Below, one piece after another: positions 1-51,800 of a stretch of 64,000 nt of DNA. The notes under the pieces were generated by a model. That model did not search any database and had not been told where the DNA came from. It saw only the letters and a program-made list of their open reading frames with translations. The stretch is taken from NCBI GenBank assembly GCA_964016885.1, contig OZ024748.1:22072001-22136000 (forward strand), written 5' to 3'. Each line of letters opens with the position of its first letter. Position 1 is the first letter of the stretch. Origin of the DNA: Eledone cirrhosa. Lineage: Eukaryota. A program made the translations under genes and the position numbers.

Positions 1-30
1 TTGAACTCAGCCGTCGGAGTCCTACTCGTT

Positions 31-71
<41 letters not shown>

Positions 72-304
72 TATTATTATTATGGTGGTCAGGGTCACCG
101 TGGCTTTTTTAGTGGGCTTTCTCCACGAATGTCCCTCGGAAGTCTCCCCTCTATTGGGGAATTTTTCATTGTTTCTTTTTTGTTACATCTTCTGTTTTTG
201 TTTTTTTACACGCAGAAATGCCCATTTGTACCGTCCTATATTGTCCTTAATGTTTTACTTTGTGTAAACCCTTGGGGTTAATAAATAAAGCATTATTATT
301 ATTA

Positions 305-486
305 TTGGCAGTGTCGGTAGAATGTCGAACGCCATGCTTTGACGCATAGAGTTATGGCCCTTGCCATTCTGAGTTCAAATCCCGCCGAGGTTAACTTTAT
401 CTTTCATCCTTACGGGGTCGATAAAATAAAGTACCAGTAATGCACTGGGTAATTGCTGGCCTTGTGCCAAAAAGTCGAAACAATTA
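305..486 (+). mobile_element. tRNA-derived SINE family A
   Basis: A-box-like tggcagt.tcgg, B-box gagttcaaatccc, body ctttcatccttacggggtcgataaaataaagtaccag, (ATT)n tail. Confidence 0.85.
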
Positions 487-542
487 TTATTATAAAAAAA
501 TCTGAGAGGCCATAATCAGTTGATTCAGGTTTATCTAAAACT

Positions 543-600
543 CCGGTATACATATTTCACCGAGTACTATTAGTTATGATAGCCTGAGCTCTTCAGACGG
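543..600 (-). ncRNA. Degenerate hammerhead motif inside a 27-bp inverted repeat (506-532 / 714-740)
   Basis: Minus strand: ccgt CTGAAGA gct...ggt GAAA T atgt A TA^ ccgg. Same GAAATATGTATA as the 15401 motif. Confidence 0.55.
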
Positions 601-634
601 CAAAACCTATAAAACTTGAAAGCATTGAAAGTCC

Positions 635-665
<31 letters not shown>

Positions 666-866
666 AACTTTAAATTTGAAAAAGAATCTTCGACAGCCGG
701 CCCCTGTATAAAAAAACCTGAATCAACTGATTATGGCCTCCGATCTTTTAATAATATATAATGCTCCGACTTGCACCCATTATACAGGTTGAGCGCTTCT
801 TTTTATCTGCTTCACAACCGACAGATCATAATGTGGTCTGTACATACCTGTACCGTTAACCCATAC

Positions 867-928
<62 letters not shown>

Positions 929-930
<2 letters not shown>

Positions 931-1117
931 CGAAAGAAATGTGGTAAGGAACCAGGTGGACCATAACGCACCAAAGTACTCAATAATTAGGGTAGTAGAG
1001 TGGGTAATAGGAACAAGTAAGACCCCGACGGCTGAGCTCAAGCCGTTTCGACGGCTAATTCTGGACCGAATTAGCCGTCGAAACGGCTTGAGCTCAGCCG
1101 TCGGGGTCTTACTTGTT

Positions 1118-1122
<5 letters not shown>
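929..1122. mobile_element. (TA)n-embedded fold-back element, family A (perfect 54-bp arms 1007-1060 / 1069-1122)
   Basis: Each arm carries the 3' half of the HHR seen at 26603-26699. Related copies at 1-35 and 26437-26785. Confidence 0.75.
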
Positions 1123-1175
<53 letters not shown>

Positions 1176-1203
1176 TAGTTCCACAACAGTTAGTTCACCA
1201 TAC

Positions 1204-1242
1204 CTAGAACAAATGTTTCACCTTATTTGGATCGTCAGCTCG
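1204..1242 (-). ncRNA. Minimal hammerhead motif
   Basis: Minus strand: cgag CTGACGA t CC aaataa GG t GAAA C attt G TT^ ctag. Confidence 0.55.
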
Positions 1243-1468
1243 AATGGGGTTCATTTTATACAACCATTCTATAAAATTCGCTACGATTCGCATCGTTACT
1301 GCTAAGAAGTAAAACAGTAATAGAAAATAGAATAGTTAAGGGGTGATTATATATAAGGGGTGGATATTTGGAATTATCGTGAGGTATTAGCAATTATGGG
1401 GTATATATATAGTTCAAAGAGACAACAAACAGAGGTACAAAAAGTCTTATTAGTTTCACGCTTTGTTT

Positions 1469-1502
1469 CACGACGTCTCGGGTTTAATCCCTTCTTCAGG
1501 AG
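1469..1502 (-). ncRNA. Degenerate minimal hammerhead motif (GAAA changed to GAGA)
   Basis: ctc CTGAAGA a GGG attaaa CCC GAGA CG TC^ gtg. Shares downstream gcgtgaaactaataa with the 60168 motif. Confidence 0.5.
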
Positions 1503-1586
1503 TACAAATAGAGACAGGATCACAATGGAGAAACAGAAAAACTGTAACAAAGCGCTAACTAAAGTTTGCAATCTGGGAATATTGGG

Positions 1587-1805
<219 letters not shown>

Positions 1806-2762
1806 ATATAAACTTGTGGTTAACTTAATCACTGATAAAATTTAAAAGGGAGTCGTCCAAACCGAAATGACCACAATAAAAGATATCCACTACAAATCAG
1901 TTAAGAAAATGATGTAAATCCTTTCTGGTGACGGAAAAAAGAGGATTTTATCAATTGTTATTTATAGTGATCAACCAGTTATGAACTATTATTATGGTCA
2001 TTTGCGTTGGGACGCATTTTGCTTTTTACAAATACATACACATGCACACATATAATGACTTCTGTTTTAGGCACGAGGCAGCAATTTTTAAAGGAAGGGA
2101 AAGTCGATTAAATCGATCCCAGTGCGTGACTGGTACTTTATTTTATCGACCTCTTAAGGATGAAAGGCAAAGGTAACCTCTCCGGGATTTGAACTCAGAA
2201 CGTAAAGGGGCATAACTCTATTCTGCAAAGAAGGGTGTCGGACGCTCTACTGATACTGCCAATCCACCACCACACGCACATATATAATAATGGTTCATTT
2301 TAAAATAATATTCTATGAAATATTTTTCATAGAATATAGTGACTTTATTTCAATAATCTGTCATCCCTGTGAAGCCCTCCACCCACCTCGCCCTATCATA
2401 TGAGCTACAGAGAAAACATAACTTCGATAAGGTTGGCACTATTTTTGCGACCGCCTAAGCAAGATGACTATTTATACAAGTGTCAACGCTAATTTGTCTG
2501 TTTTCTGGCTGTCAGCCAATGCAACACGAAATCTGATAGCGTTTTGTCTGCCGAAGTCTGGAAGAGTTCTGTAAGGTCGGCCGCTTCTTTACCATCTCTG
2601 ATAGTATTTGTCTGAGTATGTGTGTCTGTGTGTGTGTGTGAGTGCGCGCGCGTGTGTGTGTGTGTCCATTTTTGTGTGTGTAATTGTGTATATAAGTGTA
2701 TACGTTTGTGTGTATCAGTGTGAGTGTGAGCGTGTACCAGTGTGAGTGTGTGTGTGTGTGCG

Positions 2763-2795
<33 letters not shown>

Positions 2796-3512
2796 CAGTG
2801 TGTGTGTGTGTGAATGTGTGTGTCAGTGTGTTTGTGAGTGTATATGAGTGTCAGTGTGTGTGTGAGTGTATGTGAGTGTTTGTGTGAGCGTGTGTGTGTG
2901 AGCCTGTGCGTGTATGTGAGTGTGTGTATGTGTGTCCATGCTTGTGTGTGAGTGTAATTGCGTATATATGTGTATAAGTGTGTGTGTGTGCGTGTGTGTG
3001 TCTATGTTGCTTGTAGGACCTCCGTCGGTTCCGACGACGAATATTCCAATTGGTACACCCACGAAATTAGCTTACAAGTGGGCGAAAATATCACAGTGAC
3101 GTGTACCATTCATTTAATTCTCAGGGAGATTTACACACACAAATGTGTGTGTGTGTGTGTGTGTGTTCTTTTATTGCTCTCTGTTAATGGTTTCATTATA
3201 CTGCGGCCATGCTGGACAACTGTCTGAAAGGGATTAAGTCCATCATATCGACCCACTAGTACATATATGTATGTTCTGAGTACATACATTTTCCAAGTCT
3301 GAAATTGATTTAATCGCACTCTTTTTGTCGAACAGCTAAGTTACGGAAAATAAATGTAGGCACAAACGAAAACACACATACACACACACACACACACACA
3401 CGCACACACACATTCACACACACACAGACACATACACACAATTGATGACTAAATGCACACACACACACACACATATATATGTATATATATACACTCACAT
3501 AGATATATATAT

Positions 3513-3691
3513 AATTGTTTCTACTTTTGGCACAAGGCCAGCAAATACCCAGTACATTACTGGTACTTTATTTTATCGACCGCGTAAGGATGAAAGGCAA
3601 AGTTAACCTCGGCGAGATTTGAACTCAGAATGGAAAGGGTCGTAACTCTATGCGGCAAAGCATGGCGTCCGACCCTCTACCGATGCTGCCA
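3513..3691 (-). mobile_element. SINE family A (also 2060-2272, minus)
   Basis: Reverse complement of the 305-486 consensus. Confidence 0.85.
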
Positions 3692-3860
3692 AGCATGATG
3701 CACGTAACGTTTTACATCAGTGATCCGCAGTAGACAACTGATGAAGGGAAAATCTAGCCCGACTCTGTAATCAATGGCTCGTCGGACCTCTGTGGTAGTA
3801 ATGACAGAATGAATATACATGGCGGGTGAACCTACAGTAACTCCGCGTTACACTCCCTGG

Positions 3861-3924
<64 letters not shown>

Positions 3925-3926
<2 letters not shown>

Positions 3927-4463
3927 TGTTATGCTTTGGGAGGGTCATGTTGCCAATAAGAAACACACGCACCAGTTGCTTTCACTCCAATTTATTATAA
4001 ATTAAATTTATAAATTTATAAATTTATAAATTTCCAGTTGGTTGGTTGGTTGGTTCCACAACCGGACGGTTGTTCATATATTGTCAAAGTTCTTTCGTCA
4101 CACATTCTGTGACCTATTCAGTGATTAGGGATTCTTTTCTTTGTTTTTGTGCCTCTCCTTTGTTCTGTCCTACGCCATCCAGAACAAAGGAGAGGCACAA
4201 AAACAAAGAAAAGAATCCCAGTCACTGAAGAGGTCACAGAATGTGTGACGAAAGAACTTTCACAATATATGAACAACCGTCCGGTTGTGGAACCAACCAA
4301 CCAACCAACCGGAAATTTATAAATTCCTAAATTTATAATAAATTGGAATGAAACAACTGGTGCGTGTGTTTCTTATTGGCAACATGACCATCCCAAAGCA
4401 TAACAATATCAGTTTCAACACACCTTTTCAGATAAAGAATCTTGCTAAACAAAATCAGAAACG

Positions 4464-4466
<3 letters not shown>
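3925..4466. mobile_element. (TA)n-embedded fold-back element with ~235-bp arms
   Basis: Arms 3925-4167 and 4180-4407 with a 12-nt loop; HHR motif in each arm; (TA)n on both sides. Confidence 0.8.
4221..4263 (+). ncRNA. Minimal hammerhead motif in a fold-back element (mirror copy 4083-4125, minus strand)
   Basis: gtca CTGAAGA g GTCACA gaatg TGTGAC GAAA GAAC TT^ tcac. The mirror copy reads tgac in stem I but has core CTGAATA. Confidence 0.7.
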
Positions 4467-4498
<32 letters not shown>

Positions 4499-4526
4499 TG
4501 TAATAAACAACATAAGGCAATTATTT

Positions 4527-4579
4527 CATTTACCAGTGGTTTCTTGAAAGCAAACAAATTTTGCTTTCAATCATCAGAA
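4527..4579 (-). ncRNA. Hammerhead ribozyme, inverted copy of 6396-6450 with truncated stem I
   Basis: Reverse complement of the same core and stems II/III. The 5' strand of stem I is replaced by the minisatellite edge, leaving only 2 bp. Confidence 0.7.
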
Positions 4580-6395
4580 AAAATCAGTTACTCTTGCTGC
4601 CCATCAATGAAGTCTAAAATCACTAGTAGTAAAAATCAGTTACTCTTGCTGCCCATCAATGAAGTCTAAAATCACTAGTAGTTAAAATCAGCTACTCTTG
4701 CTGCCCATCAATGAAGTCTAAAATCACTAGTAGTTAAAATCAGTTACTCTTGCTGCCCATCAATGAAGTCTAAAATCACTAGTTGTTAAAATCAATTACT
4801 CTTGCTGCCCATCAATGAAGTCTAAAATCACTAGTAGTTAAAATCAGTTACTCTTGCTGCCCATCAATGAAGTCTAAAATCACTAGTAGTTAAAATCAGC
4901 TACTCTTGCTGCCCATCAATGAAGTCTAAAATCACTAGTAGTTAAAATAAGTTACTCTTTCTGCCCATCAATGAAGTCTAAAATCACTAGTAGTTAAAAT
5001 CAGCTACTCTTGCTGCCCATCAATGAAGTCTAAAATCACTAGTAGTTAAAATCAGTTACTCTTGCTGCCCATCAATGAAGTCTAAAATCACTAGTAGTTA
5101 AAATCAGTTACTCTTACTGCCCATCAATGAAGTCTAAAATCACTAGTAGTTAAAATCAGTTACTCTTGCTGCCCATCAATGAAGTTTAAAATCACTAGTA
5201 GTTAAAATCAGCTACTCTTGCTGCCCATCAATGAAGTCTAAAATCACTAGTAGTTAAAATCAGTTACTCTTGCTGCCCATCAATGAAGTCTAAAATCACT
5301 AGTAGTTAAAATCAGCTACTCTTGCTGCCCATCAATGAAGTCTAAAATCACTAGTAGTTAAAATCAGCTACTCTTGCTGCCCATCAATGAAGTCTAAAAT
5401 CACTAGTTGTTAAAATCAGTTACTCTTGCTGCCCATCAATGAAGTCTAAAATCACTAGTAGTTAAAATCAGTTACTCTTGCTGCCCATCAATGAAGTCTA
5501 AAATCACTAGTAGTTAAAATCAGTTACTCTTGCTGCGCATCAATGAAGTCTAAAATCACTAGTAGTTAAAATCAGCTACTCTTGCTGCCCATCAATGAAG
5601 TCTAAAATCACTAGTAGTTAAAATCAGTTACTCTTGCTGCCCATCAATGAAGTCTAAAATCACTAGTAGTTAAAATCAGTTACTCTTGCTGCCCATCAAT
5701 GAAGTCTAAAATCACTAGTAGTTAAAATCAGCTACTCTTGCTGGCCATCAATGAAGTCTAAAATCACTAGTAGTTAAAATCAGCTACTCTTGCTGCCCAT
5801 CAATGAAGTCTAAAATCACTAGTAGTTAAAATCAGTTACTCTTGCTGCCCATCAATGAAGTCTAAAATCACTAGTTGTTAAAATCAGTTACTCTTGCTGC
5901 CCATCAATGAAGTCTAAAATCACTAGTAGTTAAAATCAGTTACTCTTGCTGCCCATCAATGAAGTCTAAAATCACTAGTAGTTAAAATCAGTTACTCTTG
6001 CTGCGCATCAATGAAGTCTAAAATCACTAGTAGTTAAAATCAGCTACTCTTGCTGCCCATCAATGAAGTCTAAAATCACTAGTAGTTAAAATCAGTTACT
6101 CTTGCTGCCCATCAATGAAGTCTAAAATCACTAGTAGTTAAAATCAGCTACTCTTGCTGCCCATCAATGAAGTCTAAAATCACTAGTAGTTAAAATCAGT
6201 TACTCTTGCTGCCCATCAATGAAGTCTAAAATCACTAGTAGTTAAAATCAGTTACTCTTGCTGCGCATCAATGAAGTCTAAAATCACTAGTAGTTAAAAT
6301 CAGCTACTCTTGCTGCCCATCAATGAAGTCTAAAATCACTAGTAGTTAAAATCAGTTACTCTTGCTGCCCATCAATGAAGTCTAAAACCACTAAT
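4579..6395. repeat. 52-bp minisatellite, ~35 copies
   Basis: Unit aaaatcagttactcttgctgcccatcaatgaagtctaaaatcactagtagtt; period confirmed at 4601, 4861 and 5641. Confidence 0.97.
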
Positions 6396-6450
6396 CATTC
6401 TGATGATTGAAAGCAAAATTTGTTTGCTTTCAAGAAACCACTGGTAAATG
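6396..6450 (+). ncRNA. Type I hammerhead ribozyme, canonical core
   Basis: catt CTGATGA TTGAAAGCAAA atttg TTTGCTTTCAA GAAA CC act GG TA^ aatg: 4-bp stem I, 11-bp perfect stem II, short stem III, GUA cleavage triplet. Confidence 0.88.
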
Positions 6451-6954
6451 AAATAATTGCTTTATGTTGTTTATTACATAACTATTAAGCTCTGTAACCT
6501 ACACAGAGCACTCTTTTTTCCTGGACCTTTCCGACGGAATTACTTCATTCACACACACATATATATATATATATATATGCGAAACGTTTGTTTCTGTAAT
6601 ATTCTTGCTTAAGTCTGCTCTGGCAGACGTCTTGTTCGTCATCTTTCCATTCAGCTCTCTATAGAACAATAACATCTGGATGTTTATATTTAGATTTATT
6701 TTTGCTTGTTTTATACATGGATCAGAATTGTGATGATCCCTGGCCTGACTCAAGTTGAGGTGCCTCCCCCACACATCCCTCCCCCACACATCCCCCACCA
6801 TCACCACCTGTTGCACTGAAATACGTATAAGTAGCAAATCAACGGATACCACTGCTAATACAGCCATTAGTAGCAACAGCGCCACCATCATAACTCTTAG
6901 CAACATCACGAATTGACAGGCTTATACAACCCTCAAGCACACATTTACCACACG

Positions 6955-19164: not shown

Positions 19165-20185
19165 AGAAAGTGTCACAAACATGTGGCGTCCCACATTAGA
19201 TTGATTCAGGTGAAAGTGACCCAGCCCGTGGCGTCCCACATTAAATTGACACCAAAGAAAGTGTCCCAGCTCGTGACGGCCCTCATAAAATTGATACTAA
19301 AGAAAGTGTCCCAGCTCGTGACGGCCCTCATAAAATTGACACTAAAGAAAGGGTCCCAGCTCGTGACGGCCCTCATAAAATTGACACTAAAGAAAGTGTC
19401 CCAGCTCGTGACGGCCCACATAAAATTGATATTAAAGAAAGTGTCCCAGTTCGTGGTGTCCCACATTATATTGACACTGAAGAAAGTGTCCCAGCTCGTG
19501 GTGTTCCACGTTATATTGACACTGAAGAAAGTGTCCCAGTTCGTGGTGCCCCACATTATATTGACACTGAAGAAAGTGTCCCAGCTCGTGGTGTCCCACA
19601 TTATATTGACACTGAAGAAAGTGTCTCAGTTCGTGGTGTCCCACATTATATTGACACTGAAGAAAGTATCCCAGTTCGTGGTGTCCCACATTATATTGAC
19701 ATTGAAGAAAGTGTCCCAGCTCGTGGTGTCCCACATTATATTGACACTGAAGAAAGTGTCCTAGCTCGTGGTGTCCCACATTATATTGACACTGAAGAAA
19801 GTGTCCCAGTTCGTGGCGTCTATATATTGACACTGGAGAAAGTGTCCCAGTTCGTGGTGTTCCACATTATATTGACACTGAAGAAAGTGTCCCAGTTCGT
19901 GGTGTCCCACATTATATTGACACTGAAGAAAGTGTCCCAGTTCGTGGTGTCCCACATTATATTGACACTGAAGAAAGTATCCCAGTTCGTGGTGTCCCAC
20001 ATTATATTGACACTGAAGAAAGTGTCCCAGTTCGTGGCGTCTATATATTGACACTGGAGAAAGTGTCCCAGTTCGTGGTGTTCCACATTATATTGACACT
20101 GAAGAAAGTGTCCCAGTTCGTGGTGTCCCACATTATATTGACACTGGAGAAAGTGTCCCAGCTCGTAGTGTCCCTGGCGTCCCAC
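19165..20185. repeat. 45-bp minisatellite, ~22 copies
   Basis: Unit ttgacactgaagaaagtgtcccagttcgtggtgtcccacattata; two shortened units. Confidence 0.95.
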
Positions 20186-21403: not shown

Positions 21404-22041
21404 ACTTTGGCTGCCTCATGTGTCTCAAGACGTAGACTATATTGATAGATGCAACTGACCATGGTCATTGGAGCACTTTGGCTGCCTCATGTGTCTCAAG
21501 ACGTAGACTATATTGATAGATGCAACTGACCATGGTCATTGGAGCACTTTGGCTGCCTCATGTGTCTCAAGACGTAGACTATATTGATAGATGCAACTGA
21601 CCATGGTCATTGGAGCACTTTGGCTGCCTCATGTGTCTCAAGACGTAGACTATATTGATAGATGCAACTGACCATGGTCATTGGAGCACTTTGGCTGCCT
21701 CATGTGTCTCAAGACGTAGACTATATTGATAGATGCAACTGACCATGGTCATTGGAGCACTTTGGCTGCCTCATGTGTCTCAAGACGTAGACTATATTGA
21801 TAGATGCAACTGACCATGGTCATTGGAGCACTTTGGCTGCCTCATGTGTCTCAAGACGTAGACTATATTGATAGATGCAACTGACCATGGTCATTGGAGC
21901 ACTTTGGCTGCCTCATGTGTCTCAAGACGTAGACTATATTGATAGATGCAACTGACCATGGTCATTGGAGCACTTTGGCTGCCTCATGTGTCTCAAGACG
22001 TAGACTATATTGATAGATGCAACTGACCATGGTCATTGGAG
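21404..22041. repeat. 71-bp tandem repeat, 9 identical copies
   Basis: Unit actttggctgcctcatgtgtctcaagacgtagactatattgatagatgcaactgaccatggtcattggagc. Confidence 0.97.
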
Positions 22042-33254: not shown

Positions 33255-34890
33255 CACATGTACAGACACTCACATGTACACACACTCACATGTACAGACA
33301 CACACATGTACAGACACTCACATGTACAGACACCCACATGTACAGACACTCACATGTACATACACTCACATGTACAGACATACACATGTACACACACTCA
33401 CATGTACATACACTCACATGTACAGACACCCACATGTACAGACACTCACATGTACATACACTCACATGTACAGACATACACATGTACACACACTCACATG
33501 TACATACACTCACATGTACAGACACTCACATGTACACACACTCACATGTACAGACATACACATGTACAGACACTCACATGTACAGACACTCACATGTACA
33601 TACACTCACATGTACAGACATACACATGTACAGACACCCACATGTACAGACACACACATGTACAGACACTCATATGTACAGATACTCACATGTACAGACA
33701 CTCATATGTACAGACACTCACATGTACAGACACTCACATGTACACACACTCACATGTACAGACACTCACATGTACAGACACTCACATGTACAGACACTCA
33801 TATGTACAGACACTCACATGTACAGACACTCACATGTACAGACACTCACATGTACAGACACTCACATGTACAGACACTCACATGTACAGACATACACATG
33901 TACAGACACTCATATGTACAGATACTCACATGTACAGACACTCATATGTACAGACACTCACATGTACAGACACTCACATGTACACACACTCACATGTACA
34001 GACACTCACATGTACAGACACTCATATGTACAAAAACTCACATGTACAGACACTCACATGTACAGACACTCACATGTACAGACACACACATGTACAGACA
34101 CTCACATGTACAGACACTCACATGTACAGACACCCACATGTACAGACACTCACATGTACAGACACTCACATGTACAGACACTCACATGTACAGACACTCA
34201 CATGTACAGACACACACATGTACAGACACTCACATGTACAGACACTCACATGTACAGACACCCACATGTACAGACACTCACATGTACAGACACTCAGATG
34301 TACAGACACTCACATGTACAGACACTCACATGTACAGACACACACATGTACAGACACACACATGTACAGACACTCATATGTACAGACACTCATATGTACA
34401 GACACTCACATGTACAGACACTCACATGTACATACACTCACATGTACAGACACTCACATGCACATACAGCCACATGTACAGACACACACATGTACAAACA
34501 CTCACATGTACAGACACTCATATGTACAGACACTCACATGTACAGACACTCACATGTACAGACACACACATGTACAGATACTCACATGTACAAACACTCA
34601 CATGTACAAACACTCACATGTACAGACACTCACATGTACAGGCACTCACATGTAAAGACACACACATGTACAGACACTCACATCTACAGACACTCACATG
34701 TACAGACACCCATATGTACAGACACTCACATGTACAGACACTCACATGTACATACACTCACATGTACAGACACTCACATGCACATACAGCCACATGTACA
34801 GACACCTACATGTACAGACACTCACATGTACATACAGACAGATGTACAGATACAGACATGCACATACAGCCACATGTACAGATATACACA
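33255..34890. repeat. 16-bp minisatellite (cacatgtacagacact), ~100 copies
   Basis: Direct reading; explains the 480-595 aa pseudo-ORFs. Confidence 0.97.
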
Positions 34891-39445: not shown

Positions 39446-39793
39446 GGCACATGGCTTAGTGGTTAGAGCATTGGCCTTGCAATCGAAAGGTTGTGAGTTC
39501 AATTCTCAGACTGGGTGATGTGTTGTTTCCTTGAGCAAGACACTTTATTTCACATTGCTCCAGTTTACTCAGCTGTAGAAATGAGATGATAGGGACTGGG
39601 GTCCATATCATTCCACTGCAAAGTGGTCGTGGAGGTGCCACGGCAAAAAAGCACCCAGCACTCACTGTAAAGGAGGTTGGTGTTAGGAAGGGCATCCAGC
39701 TGTAGAAATCAAGCCAGCATCAGTTCCCGTCCCACCCTTGCAAGCAGGGAAAAAAGCGGACGTAAAATGAAATGATGATGATGATGATGATGA
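39443..39793 (+). mobile_element. tRNA-derived SINE family B, long form with (ATG)n tail
   Basis: tggcttagtggttagagc..gagttcaattctc..ccttgagcaagacact; near-identical inverted copy at 44458-44800. Confidence 0.88.
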
Positions 39794-47821: not shown

Positions 47822-48105
47822 GGTCACTTCAGAAGCTCTCTACATTCCAGAACCACATCATGAGACTTATGACTGGCAAGCGGCTCAGCGACCGCATCTG
47901 TATCAGTGAGCTGCTCAACATTACCAAACTTAGACCAATTACATCAATTGTCAAGTCAAGAGCACTCAAGCTATACGGTCATATAAAAAGATCAACTCGT
48001 GGTGTGAGTAGGTTATGCCTGGAAGGAAGGTTGGCTGGTAAGAGAAGCAGAGGCCAGCAGCCAAAACGATGGCTTGATAATGTCAACTTATGGACTGGAC
48101 TTGTA
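47822..48105 (+). mobile_element. RTE-clade LINE 3' fragment
   Basis: ORF 47860-48111: LKLYGHIKR..LEGRLAGKRSRGQQPKRWLDNV. Confidence 0.8.
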
Positions 48106-48503
48106 GTATAGACTATGTTAGAGATAGATGTAGTATAGACTATGTTAGATGTAGTATAGACTATGTTAGAGATAGATGTAGTATAGACTATGTTAAATGT
48201 AGTATAGACTATGTTAGAGATAGATGTAGTATAGACTATGTTAGAGATAGATGTAGTATAGACTATGTTAGAGATAGATGTAGTATAGACTATGTTAGAG
48301 ATAGATGTAGTATAGACTATGTTAGAGATAGATGTAGTATAGACTATGTTAGAGATAGATGTAGTATAGACTATGCTAGAGATAGATGTAGTATAGACTA
48401 TGTTAGAGATAGATGTAGTATAGACTATGTTAGAGATAGATGTAGTATAGATTATGTTTGACTTAGATGTAATATAGAATGTGATTTAGAGATAGATGTA
48501 ATA
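48102..48503. repeat. 27-bp minisatellite (tgtagtatagactatgttagagataga) with 21-bp variants
   Basis: Direct reading. Confidence 0.95.
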
Positions 48504-48508
48504 TGAAA

Positions 48509-51286: not shown

Positions 51287-51800
51287 CAAGTCTTAAGTAA
51301 AGTCTTATAAACGTTTTAAATAAAGCCTTGTAGGCGTCTTATAGAAGTCTTAAGTAATGTCTTATAGAAGTCTTAAGTAATGTCTTATAGAAGTCTTAAG
51401 TAATGTCTTATAGAAGTCTTAAGTAAAGTCTTGTAGACGTCTTAAATATAGCCTTATAGATGTCTTATAGAAGTCTTAAGTAATGTCTTATAGAAGTCTT
51501 AAGTAAAGTCTTGTAGACGTCTTAAATAAAGCCTTATAGATGTCTTATAGAAGTCTTAAGTAATGTCTTATAGAAATCGTAAGTAATGTCTTATTGAAGT
51601 CTTAAATAATCTCTTATAGAAGTTTTAAGTAAAGTTTTATAGAAGTCTTAAGTAATGCCTTGTAGAAGCCTTAAGTAAAGTCTTATAGAAGTGTTAAGTC
51701 TTGTAGACATCTTAAGTAAAGTCTTATAGACGTCTTAAGTAAAGTCTTACAGACGTCTTAAGTAAAGTCTTATAGACGTCTTAAGTAAAGTCTTATAGAA
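51287..51800. repeat. 23-bp minisatellite (aagtcttaagtaa[a/t]gtcttatag)
   Basis: Direct reading; built from 11/12-bp sub-units. Confidence 0.9.

Follow-up and report, generated by a model that had tools for sequence, protein, structure and literature searches.

The locus raises the question of how a minisatellite of 52-bp units came to lie between two hammerhead ribozyme motifs that face away from it. The question was addressed in a window of 64,000 nucleotides, i.e., the whole stretch of Eledone cirrhosa DNA that was analyzed (contig OZ024748.1, positions 22,072,001 to 22,136,000). Within it, a Penelope-like retrotransposon (PLE) of Hydra type has inserted once, at positions 4492-6549, into a (TA)n run; the insertion is non-coding. 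The arms, the tail and the 52-bp unit all come from one element family, and apart from its internal minisatellite, which occurs only here, the element is of a known kind. Its parts are the following:

4466-4494, no strand: (TA)n target microsatellite, left flank (AT x14.5)
4492-4579, minus strand: inverted partial pLTR of the short-end class (+85 from the core), truncated 2 nt before the ribozyme core
4526-4579, minus strand: left hammerhead, with its core at 4577-4571, a cut predicted at 4531/4530 and a stem I of 2 contiguous pairs
4580-6394, plus strand: 52-bp ORF-slice array of 35 head-to-tail copies
6395-6451, plus strand: right hammerhead, type I with a short stem III as in the Hydra clade (core at 6400-6406, stem I formed by 6395-6399/6447-6451)
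6395-6485, plus strand: 3' pLTR arm, which has 1 base in common with the ORF slice at their junction
6486-6549, plus strand: one-sided "tail" (long end) of ~64 nt, equal to the 5' UTR start in full-length copies
6550-6577, no strand: right flank, (CA)5 followed by (TA)9

The minisatellite of about 35 units reported in the preliminary description was recovered by the tandem-repeat scan (4580-6393, period 52, 34.9 copies, 97% matches, the length being the assembly figure). No indels were found between its units. The natural unit start falls at 4626+52k, unit 1 lacks its first 6 nt, and the last unit extends 1-2 nt into native ORF sequence. The head-to-tail junction is blunt and, save for point variants, identical in all 34 joints. 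Variants recur across units (in 12, 3 and 3 of them), in part in register; the commonest is a C at unit position 15 (12/35 units). Furthermore, units 17-21 equal units 26-30, two rare variants included (p 0.025 and 0.018 in 5000 shuffles; these permutation statistics were picked after the pattern was seen and are modest). That the tandem array is an assembly artefact is hardly conceivable. Among the matches listed for the best-matching run (X1), no contig spanned the second tandem junction, and the RAD reads of run X6 did not cross it; such gaps in read-run contigs carry no weight as proof, and the RAD-seq runs X6 and X7 yielded only family copies and a few flank reads. No RNA run was among the matching runs listed. 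By contrast, an 82-nt contig of run X4, which has another sample, study and organism label, comprises the whole tandem cycle at a depth of 5.7, and the units hold structured point variants. Owing to this contig, the tandem junction is regarded as real outside the assembly.

The inverted arms that had been described as bounding the array were confirmed: 4492-4579 and the reverse complement of 6398-6485 are identical at 87 of 88 positions, and each arm holds a ribozyme core, with CTGATGA at 6400 on the plus strand and at 4577 on the minus strand. In both arms, 11 complementary stem II pairs are followed by GAAA-CC-ACT-GG-UA. Stem II is better read as 10 pairs, since the outer U-A pair is not conserved in the family. 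The plus strand cut is predicted after GUA at 6446/6447, in agreement with the position given earlier. Seven core-like matches were found window-wide, with more than 4 stem II pairs in just the two arm cores; the 52-mer holds no ribozyme core. The hammerhead pattern is that of File S2 of Craig et al. 2021 (PMC8557442).

Stem I has 7 pairs in 90 of 117 family copies. At the window locus, 5 contiguous pairs (TCATT/AATGA) are left in the right copy and 2 in the left copy; thus, both ribozymes are clipped at the array edge. The right ribozyme, previously called textbook, has an intact core, but its stem I is 5 contiguous pairs shortened from 7 rather than the 4 bp stated. Likewise, the left copy is indeed clipped at the array edge, as had been noted, but has kept 2 pairs and not lost its stem I altogether. 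With so short a left stem I, cleavage of a minus-strand transcript appears doubtful. The hammerhead fold is not the predicted minimum-energy fold: it exceeds that minimum by 2.2 kcal/mol in the right copy, 7.4 in the left copy and 3.9 in the native ribozyme. Rfam returned no hammerhead match at the gathering threshold. One compensatory stem II change was present in 8 subfamily copies. An older-looking PLE subfamily (L122-L132) has linked 52-mer changes and a different stem II, whose pairing is kept by compensatory change.

The arms belong to a young family that is dispersed in the genome (at least 48 matches at 98-100%; best 40 scored of 850 candidates), and the 47-nt ribozyme core has 191 exact copies. 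In the full-length copies L067 and L073, a short 5' UTR and the ORF come after arm and tail; the arm occurs again downstream of the 3' UTR, which is rich in microsatellites and about 1.2-3.5 kb long. The arms are the pLTR of this multi-copy PLE, and direct pLTRs were seen in natural copies. Their ends fall into two classes, +85 and about +150 from the core, with 40 of 107 ends at +85 and 43 of 107 at +153/155. Diverging arm pairs combine one short and one long end in 31 of 38 cases (window included); in the window, the short end is on the left and the long end on the right, and the tail at 6486-6549 has no counterpart on the left side. Both kinds of end adjoin TA runs (63/67 long ends, 76/89 short ends). 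An inverted element segment lies upstream in 41 of 80 ORF loci, and an inverted partner arm within 3 kb in 14 of 29 other arm loci. Insertions of this family normally combine an inverted short end with a direct long end. The outward-reading layout of the two ribozymes stands as first described, but the clamp role assigned to it does not: the layout is a normal by-product of PLE insertion, and the ribozymes are passengers of the pLTR without a dedicated array-clamping role. Runs of (CA)n, absent from the native template, follow 13 of the 67 long ends (e.g., 6550-6559 in the window) and none of the 89 short ends, a set that includes a few variant read-throughs. This suggests stutter of the reverse transcriptase (RT) at initiation, or later slippage.

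The ORF of natural copies is ordered as N-terminal part, YRDD, linker and endonuclease-like region, an order read from YRDD and GIY-YIG-like motifs. An RWK motif and the change of DKG to DKT are present in L062 and L064, and L064 has CSCRKPNKC (CxCX5C linker), CSLC (CxxC) and CCPH (CxH). A CCHH in the endonuclease core is absent, with no cysteines between the core halves in the ORF translations. The ORF has 349 homologues of 630-2000 aa, the best 120 of which are all unnamed or hypothetical. Pfam searches with 4 ORF pieces and 4 homologues gave no useful match, and neither did a PDB search with an alignment. The putative identity of the ORF protein as RT and endonuclease rests on its motifs. 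RWK, DKT, CxCX5C, missing CCHH, CxxC, CxH, (TA)n targets and the hammerhead are published as features of the Hydra clade (PMC8557442). The element carries the published motifs together with (TA)n targets and the hammerhead motif, and on these grounds it would be placed in the Hydra clade. Inverted 5'-truncated copies and one-sided tails are given as typical of PLEs in the same source, and its entry for Penelope-13_HM notes an inverted 5' copy and hammerheads on both strands.

Where did the unit come from? The 52-mer is part of the PLE ORF and encodes VVKISYSCCPSMKSKIT, in the linker between the YRDD (RT) region and the endonuclease-like end. It is single-copy per ORF, and the monomer-context pattern gave 134 exact matches. 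Thus, the earlier suggestion that the array arose inside the element is borne out: its unit is a slice of the PLE's own ORF. Outside the window locus, the 52-mer was matched as monomer alone and the tandem form was absent. Arrays at several loci, as expected of a dispersed satellite family, were not found, all 34 matches to the head-to-tail junction lying within the array. The arm-to-unit junction had one match, at the window locus, and the 52-mer array lay beside the ribozyme arm at none of 29 other arm loci, where the preliminary description had proposed to look for it. In 80 ORF-anchored and 60 ribozyme-anchored loci, no element-derived array exceeded about 3.5 copies, and none of these 140 loci held an intermediate of 4-30 copies of an element-derived slice (survey filter: period 15 or more, 85% matches, non-microsatellite units).

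These results bear on the alternative of a mobile or functional satellite carried as cargo between the ribozyme arms and freed as RNA from either strand, in a retrozyme-like manner. The right ribozyme, with its intact core and 5-pair stem I, would suit such a role. However, the array is confined to a single locus, its unit is ORF-derived and devoid of a ribozyme, and the left stem I is down to 2 pairs; moreover, no transcript would be cut at both ends because the arms lie on opposite strands. The cargo reading proposed earlier is accordingly dropped as very improbable.

As regards the origin of the array, it is probable that the slice was duplicated by a template jump at insertion and later lengthened by block duplication at the DNA level. 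The endonuclease would nick the (TA)n run, and a first cDNA would start at the long end and pass through the uncut ribozyme. From stem I it would jump about 2.5-4 kb upstream into the ORF and copy the slice at least two times. A second cDNA, started at the short end, would join in inverted orientation, and the units would expand afterwards by slippage or unequal exchange. Several observations in the family parallel these steps. At the right junction of the window copy, the ORF slice runs straight into the 3' pLTR, bypassing both the endonuclease region and the 3' UTR; ORF-to-3'-pLTR jumps also occur at L141 and L157, and 11 internal jumps were found in 80 loci. Junction duplications of 2-3 copies were seen at L133 (inverted arm, then ORF slice x2), L065, L136 and L017. 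The first 6 nt of the unit fall outside the left junction, on its 5' side; they cannot have been copied from the present locus, and the first duplication predates or accompanies that junction. From this we infer that template jumping at insertion produced the seed. The variants shared in register point to later growth of the array at the DNA level, and the abundance of unrelated minisatellites of 1-2 kb in the genome and near other loci speaks for the same. Iterative RT slippage, as proposed earlier, is likely for the seed and unlikely for the full array. The lack of microhomology at the tandem junction counts against template jumping followed by DNA-level growth, since short flanking repeats are usual for minisatellite seeds (PMC6947457). 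The missing intermediates of 4-30 copies in the 140 loci count against it as well, and an empty-site allele was not seen.

Growth at the DNA level could also account for the whole array if a longer copy had been inserted, its slice had expanded as DNA and two deletions had moved the arms to the array. A 6-nt microhomology (AAAATC) together with a 4-nt loss from the arm is one reading of the left junction, L172 holds a blunt 29-bp ORF duplication away from any junction, and minisatellites expand freely in this genome. This wholly post-insertional origin nevertheless requires two independent deletions, both ending at array edges no more than 5 nt from the ribozyme cores, and similar junctions in array-less copies look insertion-made; it is rated as rather unlikely. 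The window itself holds further minisatellites at 19183-20174 (45 x 22), 33255-34882 (16 x 102), 48102-48504 (27 x 15) and 51336-51800 (23 x 20), none of which matched the PLE ORF. At 21404-22041, nine units of 71 bp are 100% identical; this array was rejected as a second case, being a multi-locus family (274 matches) without arms. At L079, a 41-bp x 111+ minisatellite (oriented 1-4550) adjoins the 5' truncation point of a family copy, and its unit did not match the element.

Alternatively, the greater part of the array may stem from one insertion event, in which the PLE RT read a 52-nt piece of its own RNA over and over, either as a rolling circle or end to end; later DNA turnover would then have reshuffled no more than a few units. 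The reverse transcriptase of PLEs is a sister of telomerase RT. One-step synthesis would fit the blunt junction, with its 34 of 34 joints identical bar point variants, and an array of 1.8 kb is within the range of the hammerhead-bearing multimers seen near loci of the family (310-540 nt x 2-3). Junction stutters and the long-end (CA)n runs suggest a slippage-prone RT, and at L080 a multimer is fused to the family ORF at the inversion junction. It is the blunt junction and this multimer that keep one-step iterative synthesis under consideration. Yet re-reading a single RNA cannot give variants common to 12, 3 and 3 units, and the C variant does not come from a second subfamily: 11 of 100 listed ORF matches share the array's C, but all 11 of these dispersed copies carry linked changes missing from the array, so a template from two subfamilies was discarded. 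The unit ends carry neither splice signals nor a ribozyme by which a circle could be made; back-splicing was rejected because AG/GT is missing there on either strand, as was telomerase-type realignment, there being no repeat at the two unit ends within the ORF. The run-on of the last unit into 1-2 nt of native ORF favors a linear template, and no second case occurred in the 140 other loci. Synthesis in one insertion is therefore considered unlikely, if somewhat less so than a wholly post-insertional origin, and template jumping with later DNA-level growth is preferred.

The multimer at L080 (3370-4792; G000:C4:40557869-40559291) consists of 3.1 copies of 466 bp (99%) with a minimal hammerhead per unit on the minus strand. 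It starts in (TA)n, is fused to a 5'-truncated family ORF between inverted arms, and has the appearance of a retrozyme that was copied along with the element when it inserted. Tandems of 310-540 bp x 2-3 with hammerhead-like cores, retrozyme-like in appearance, were also noted at L139, L148, L152 and L167 (3' UTR regions) and at L252, several of them starting in (TA)n; at L072, L169 and L179, similar tandems were seen in which the core was not found. In the window, a neighboring palindromic insertion at 3925-4465 has arms of about 245 bp, a one-sided extension resembling the L027 flank, TA flanks and, at ~4222-4268, a different hammerhead-like motif; it is likely another PLE family. A weak tRNA match (29.9 bits) at 39450-39513 is likely a tRNA-derived SINE.

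An ordinary PLE copy by itself carries little weight. The locus matters as a minisatellite near its birth: its ORF source is known, its two junctions are preserved, and hundreds of sister copies without expansion serve as controls, so that the origin of a minisatellite becomes testable. In addition, the 31 of 38 inverted pairs with one end of each class support, from genomic data and in a clade other than Poseidon, the use of two RT start sites, one on each strand. Had the array been written by the RT in one go, it would tie PLE RTs functionally to telomerase repeat addition. The 1.8-kb minisatellite would then have arisen de novo and would document, in the genome, that a retrotransposon can synthesize repeats in a telomerase-like or rolling-circle manner; the retrozyme-like trimer at L080 would agree with this.

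In open-access text, titles and abstract starts, no report of PLE-ORF-slice arrays or reiterative PLE copying was found. The closest mechanistic parallel for the ends is the Poseidon element PAc of Anolis (Frangieh et al. 2024, PMC11167929), in which two RT start sites downstream of the hammerhead define an optional tail, matching the two end classes found here. Its two target strands are cut and extended, and uncut RNA is used for insertion; its hammerhead cuts only with protein and is dispensable for insertion. Poseidon belongs to another PLE clade, and the accessible text of that paper makes no mention of an internal slice being copied over several rounds.

Minisatellites derived from transposons are already known (PMC6947457). 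Like those derived from Alu, B1, MaLR and Ogre, the present array is a short internal transposon piece in tandem at one locus. It differs from the cases in the accessible text by its PLE coding source, by the absence of flanking 5-10-bp direct repeats and by a seed that likely came from insertion. Tandem repeats with type I hammerheads and a connection to PLEs are shared with non-LTR retrozymes (Cervera and de la Pena 2020, PMC7229834; bioRxiv 10.64898/2026.07.22.740005). As described in the available parts of these sources, however, retrozymes have a same-strand ribozyme in each unit of 150-450 nt. The 52-nt unit of the present locus has none and its two ribozymes face opposite ways; the locus is therefore not a retrozyme.

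The family is most similar to Hydra-clade elements such as Penelope-13_HM and Hydra-1_Obim (PMC8557442), with which it shares a hammerhead loop III of 1-3 nt and would share a single ORF with a putative C-terminal endonuclease. In that work, elements are given as generally <3 kb and tails as 30-40 bp, whereas the family here has a microsatellite-rich 3' UTR of 1.2-3.5 kb and tails of about 64-70 nt. In the window copy, the ORF is gone and only the amplified slice is left.
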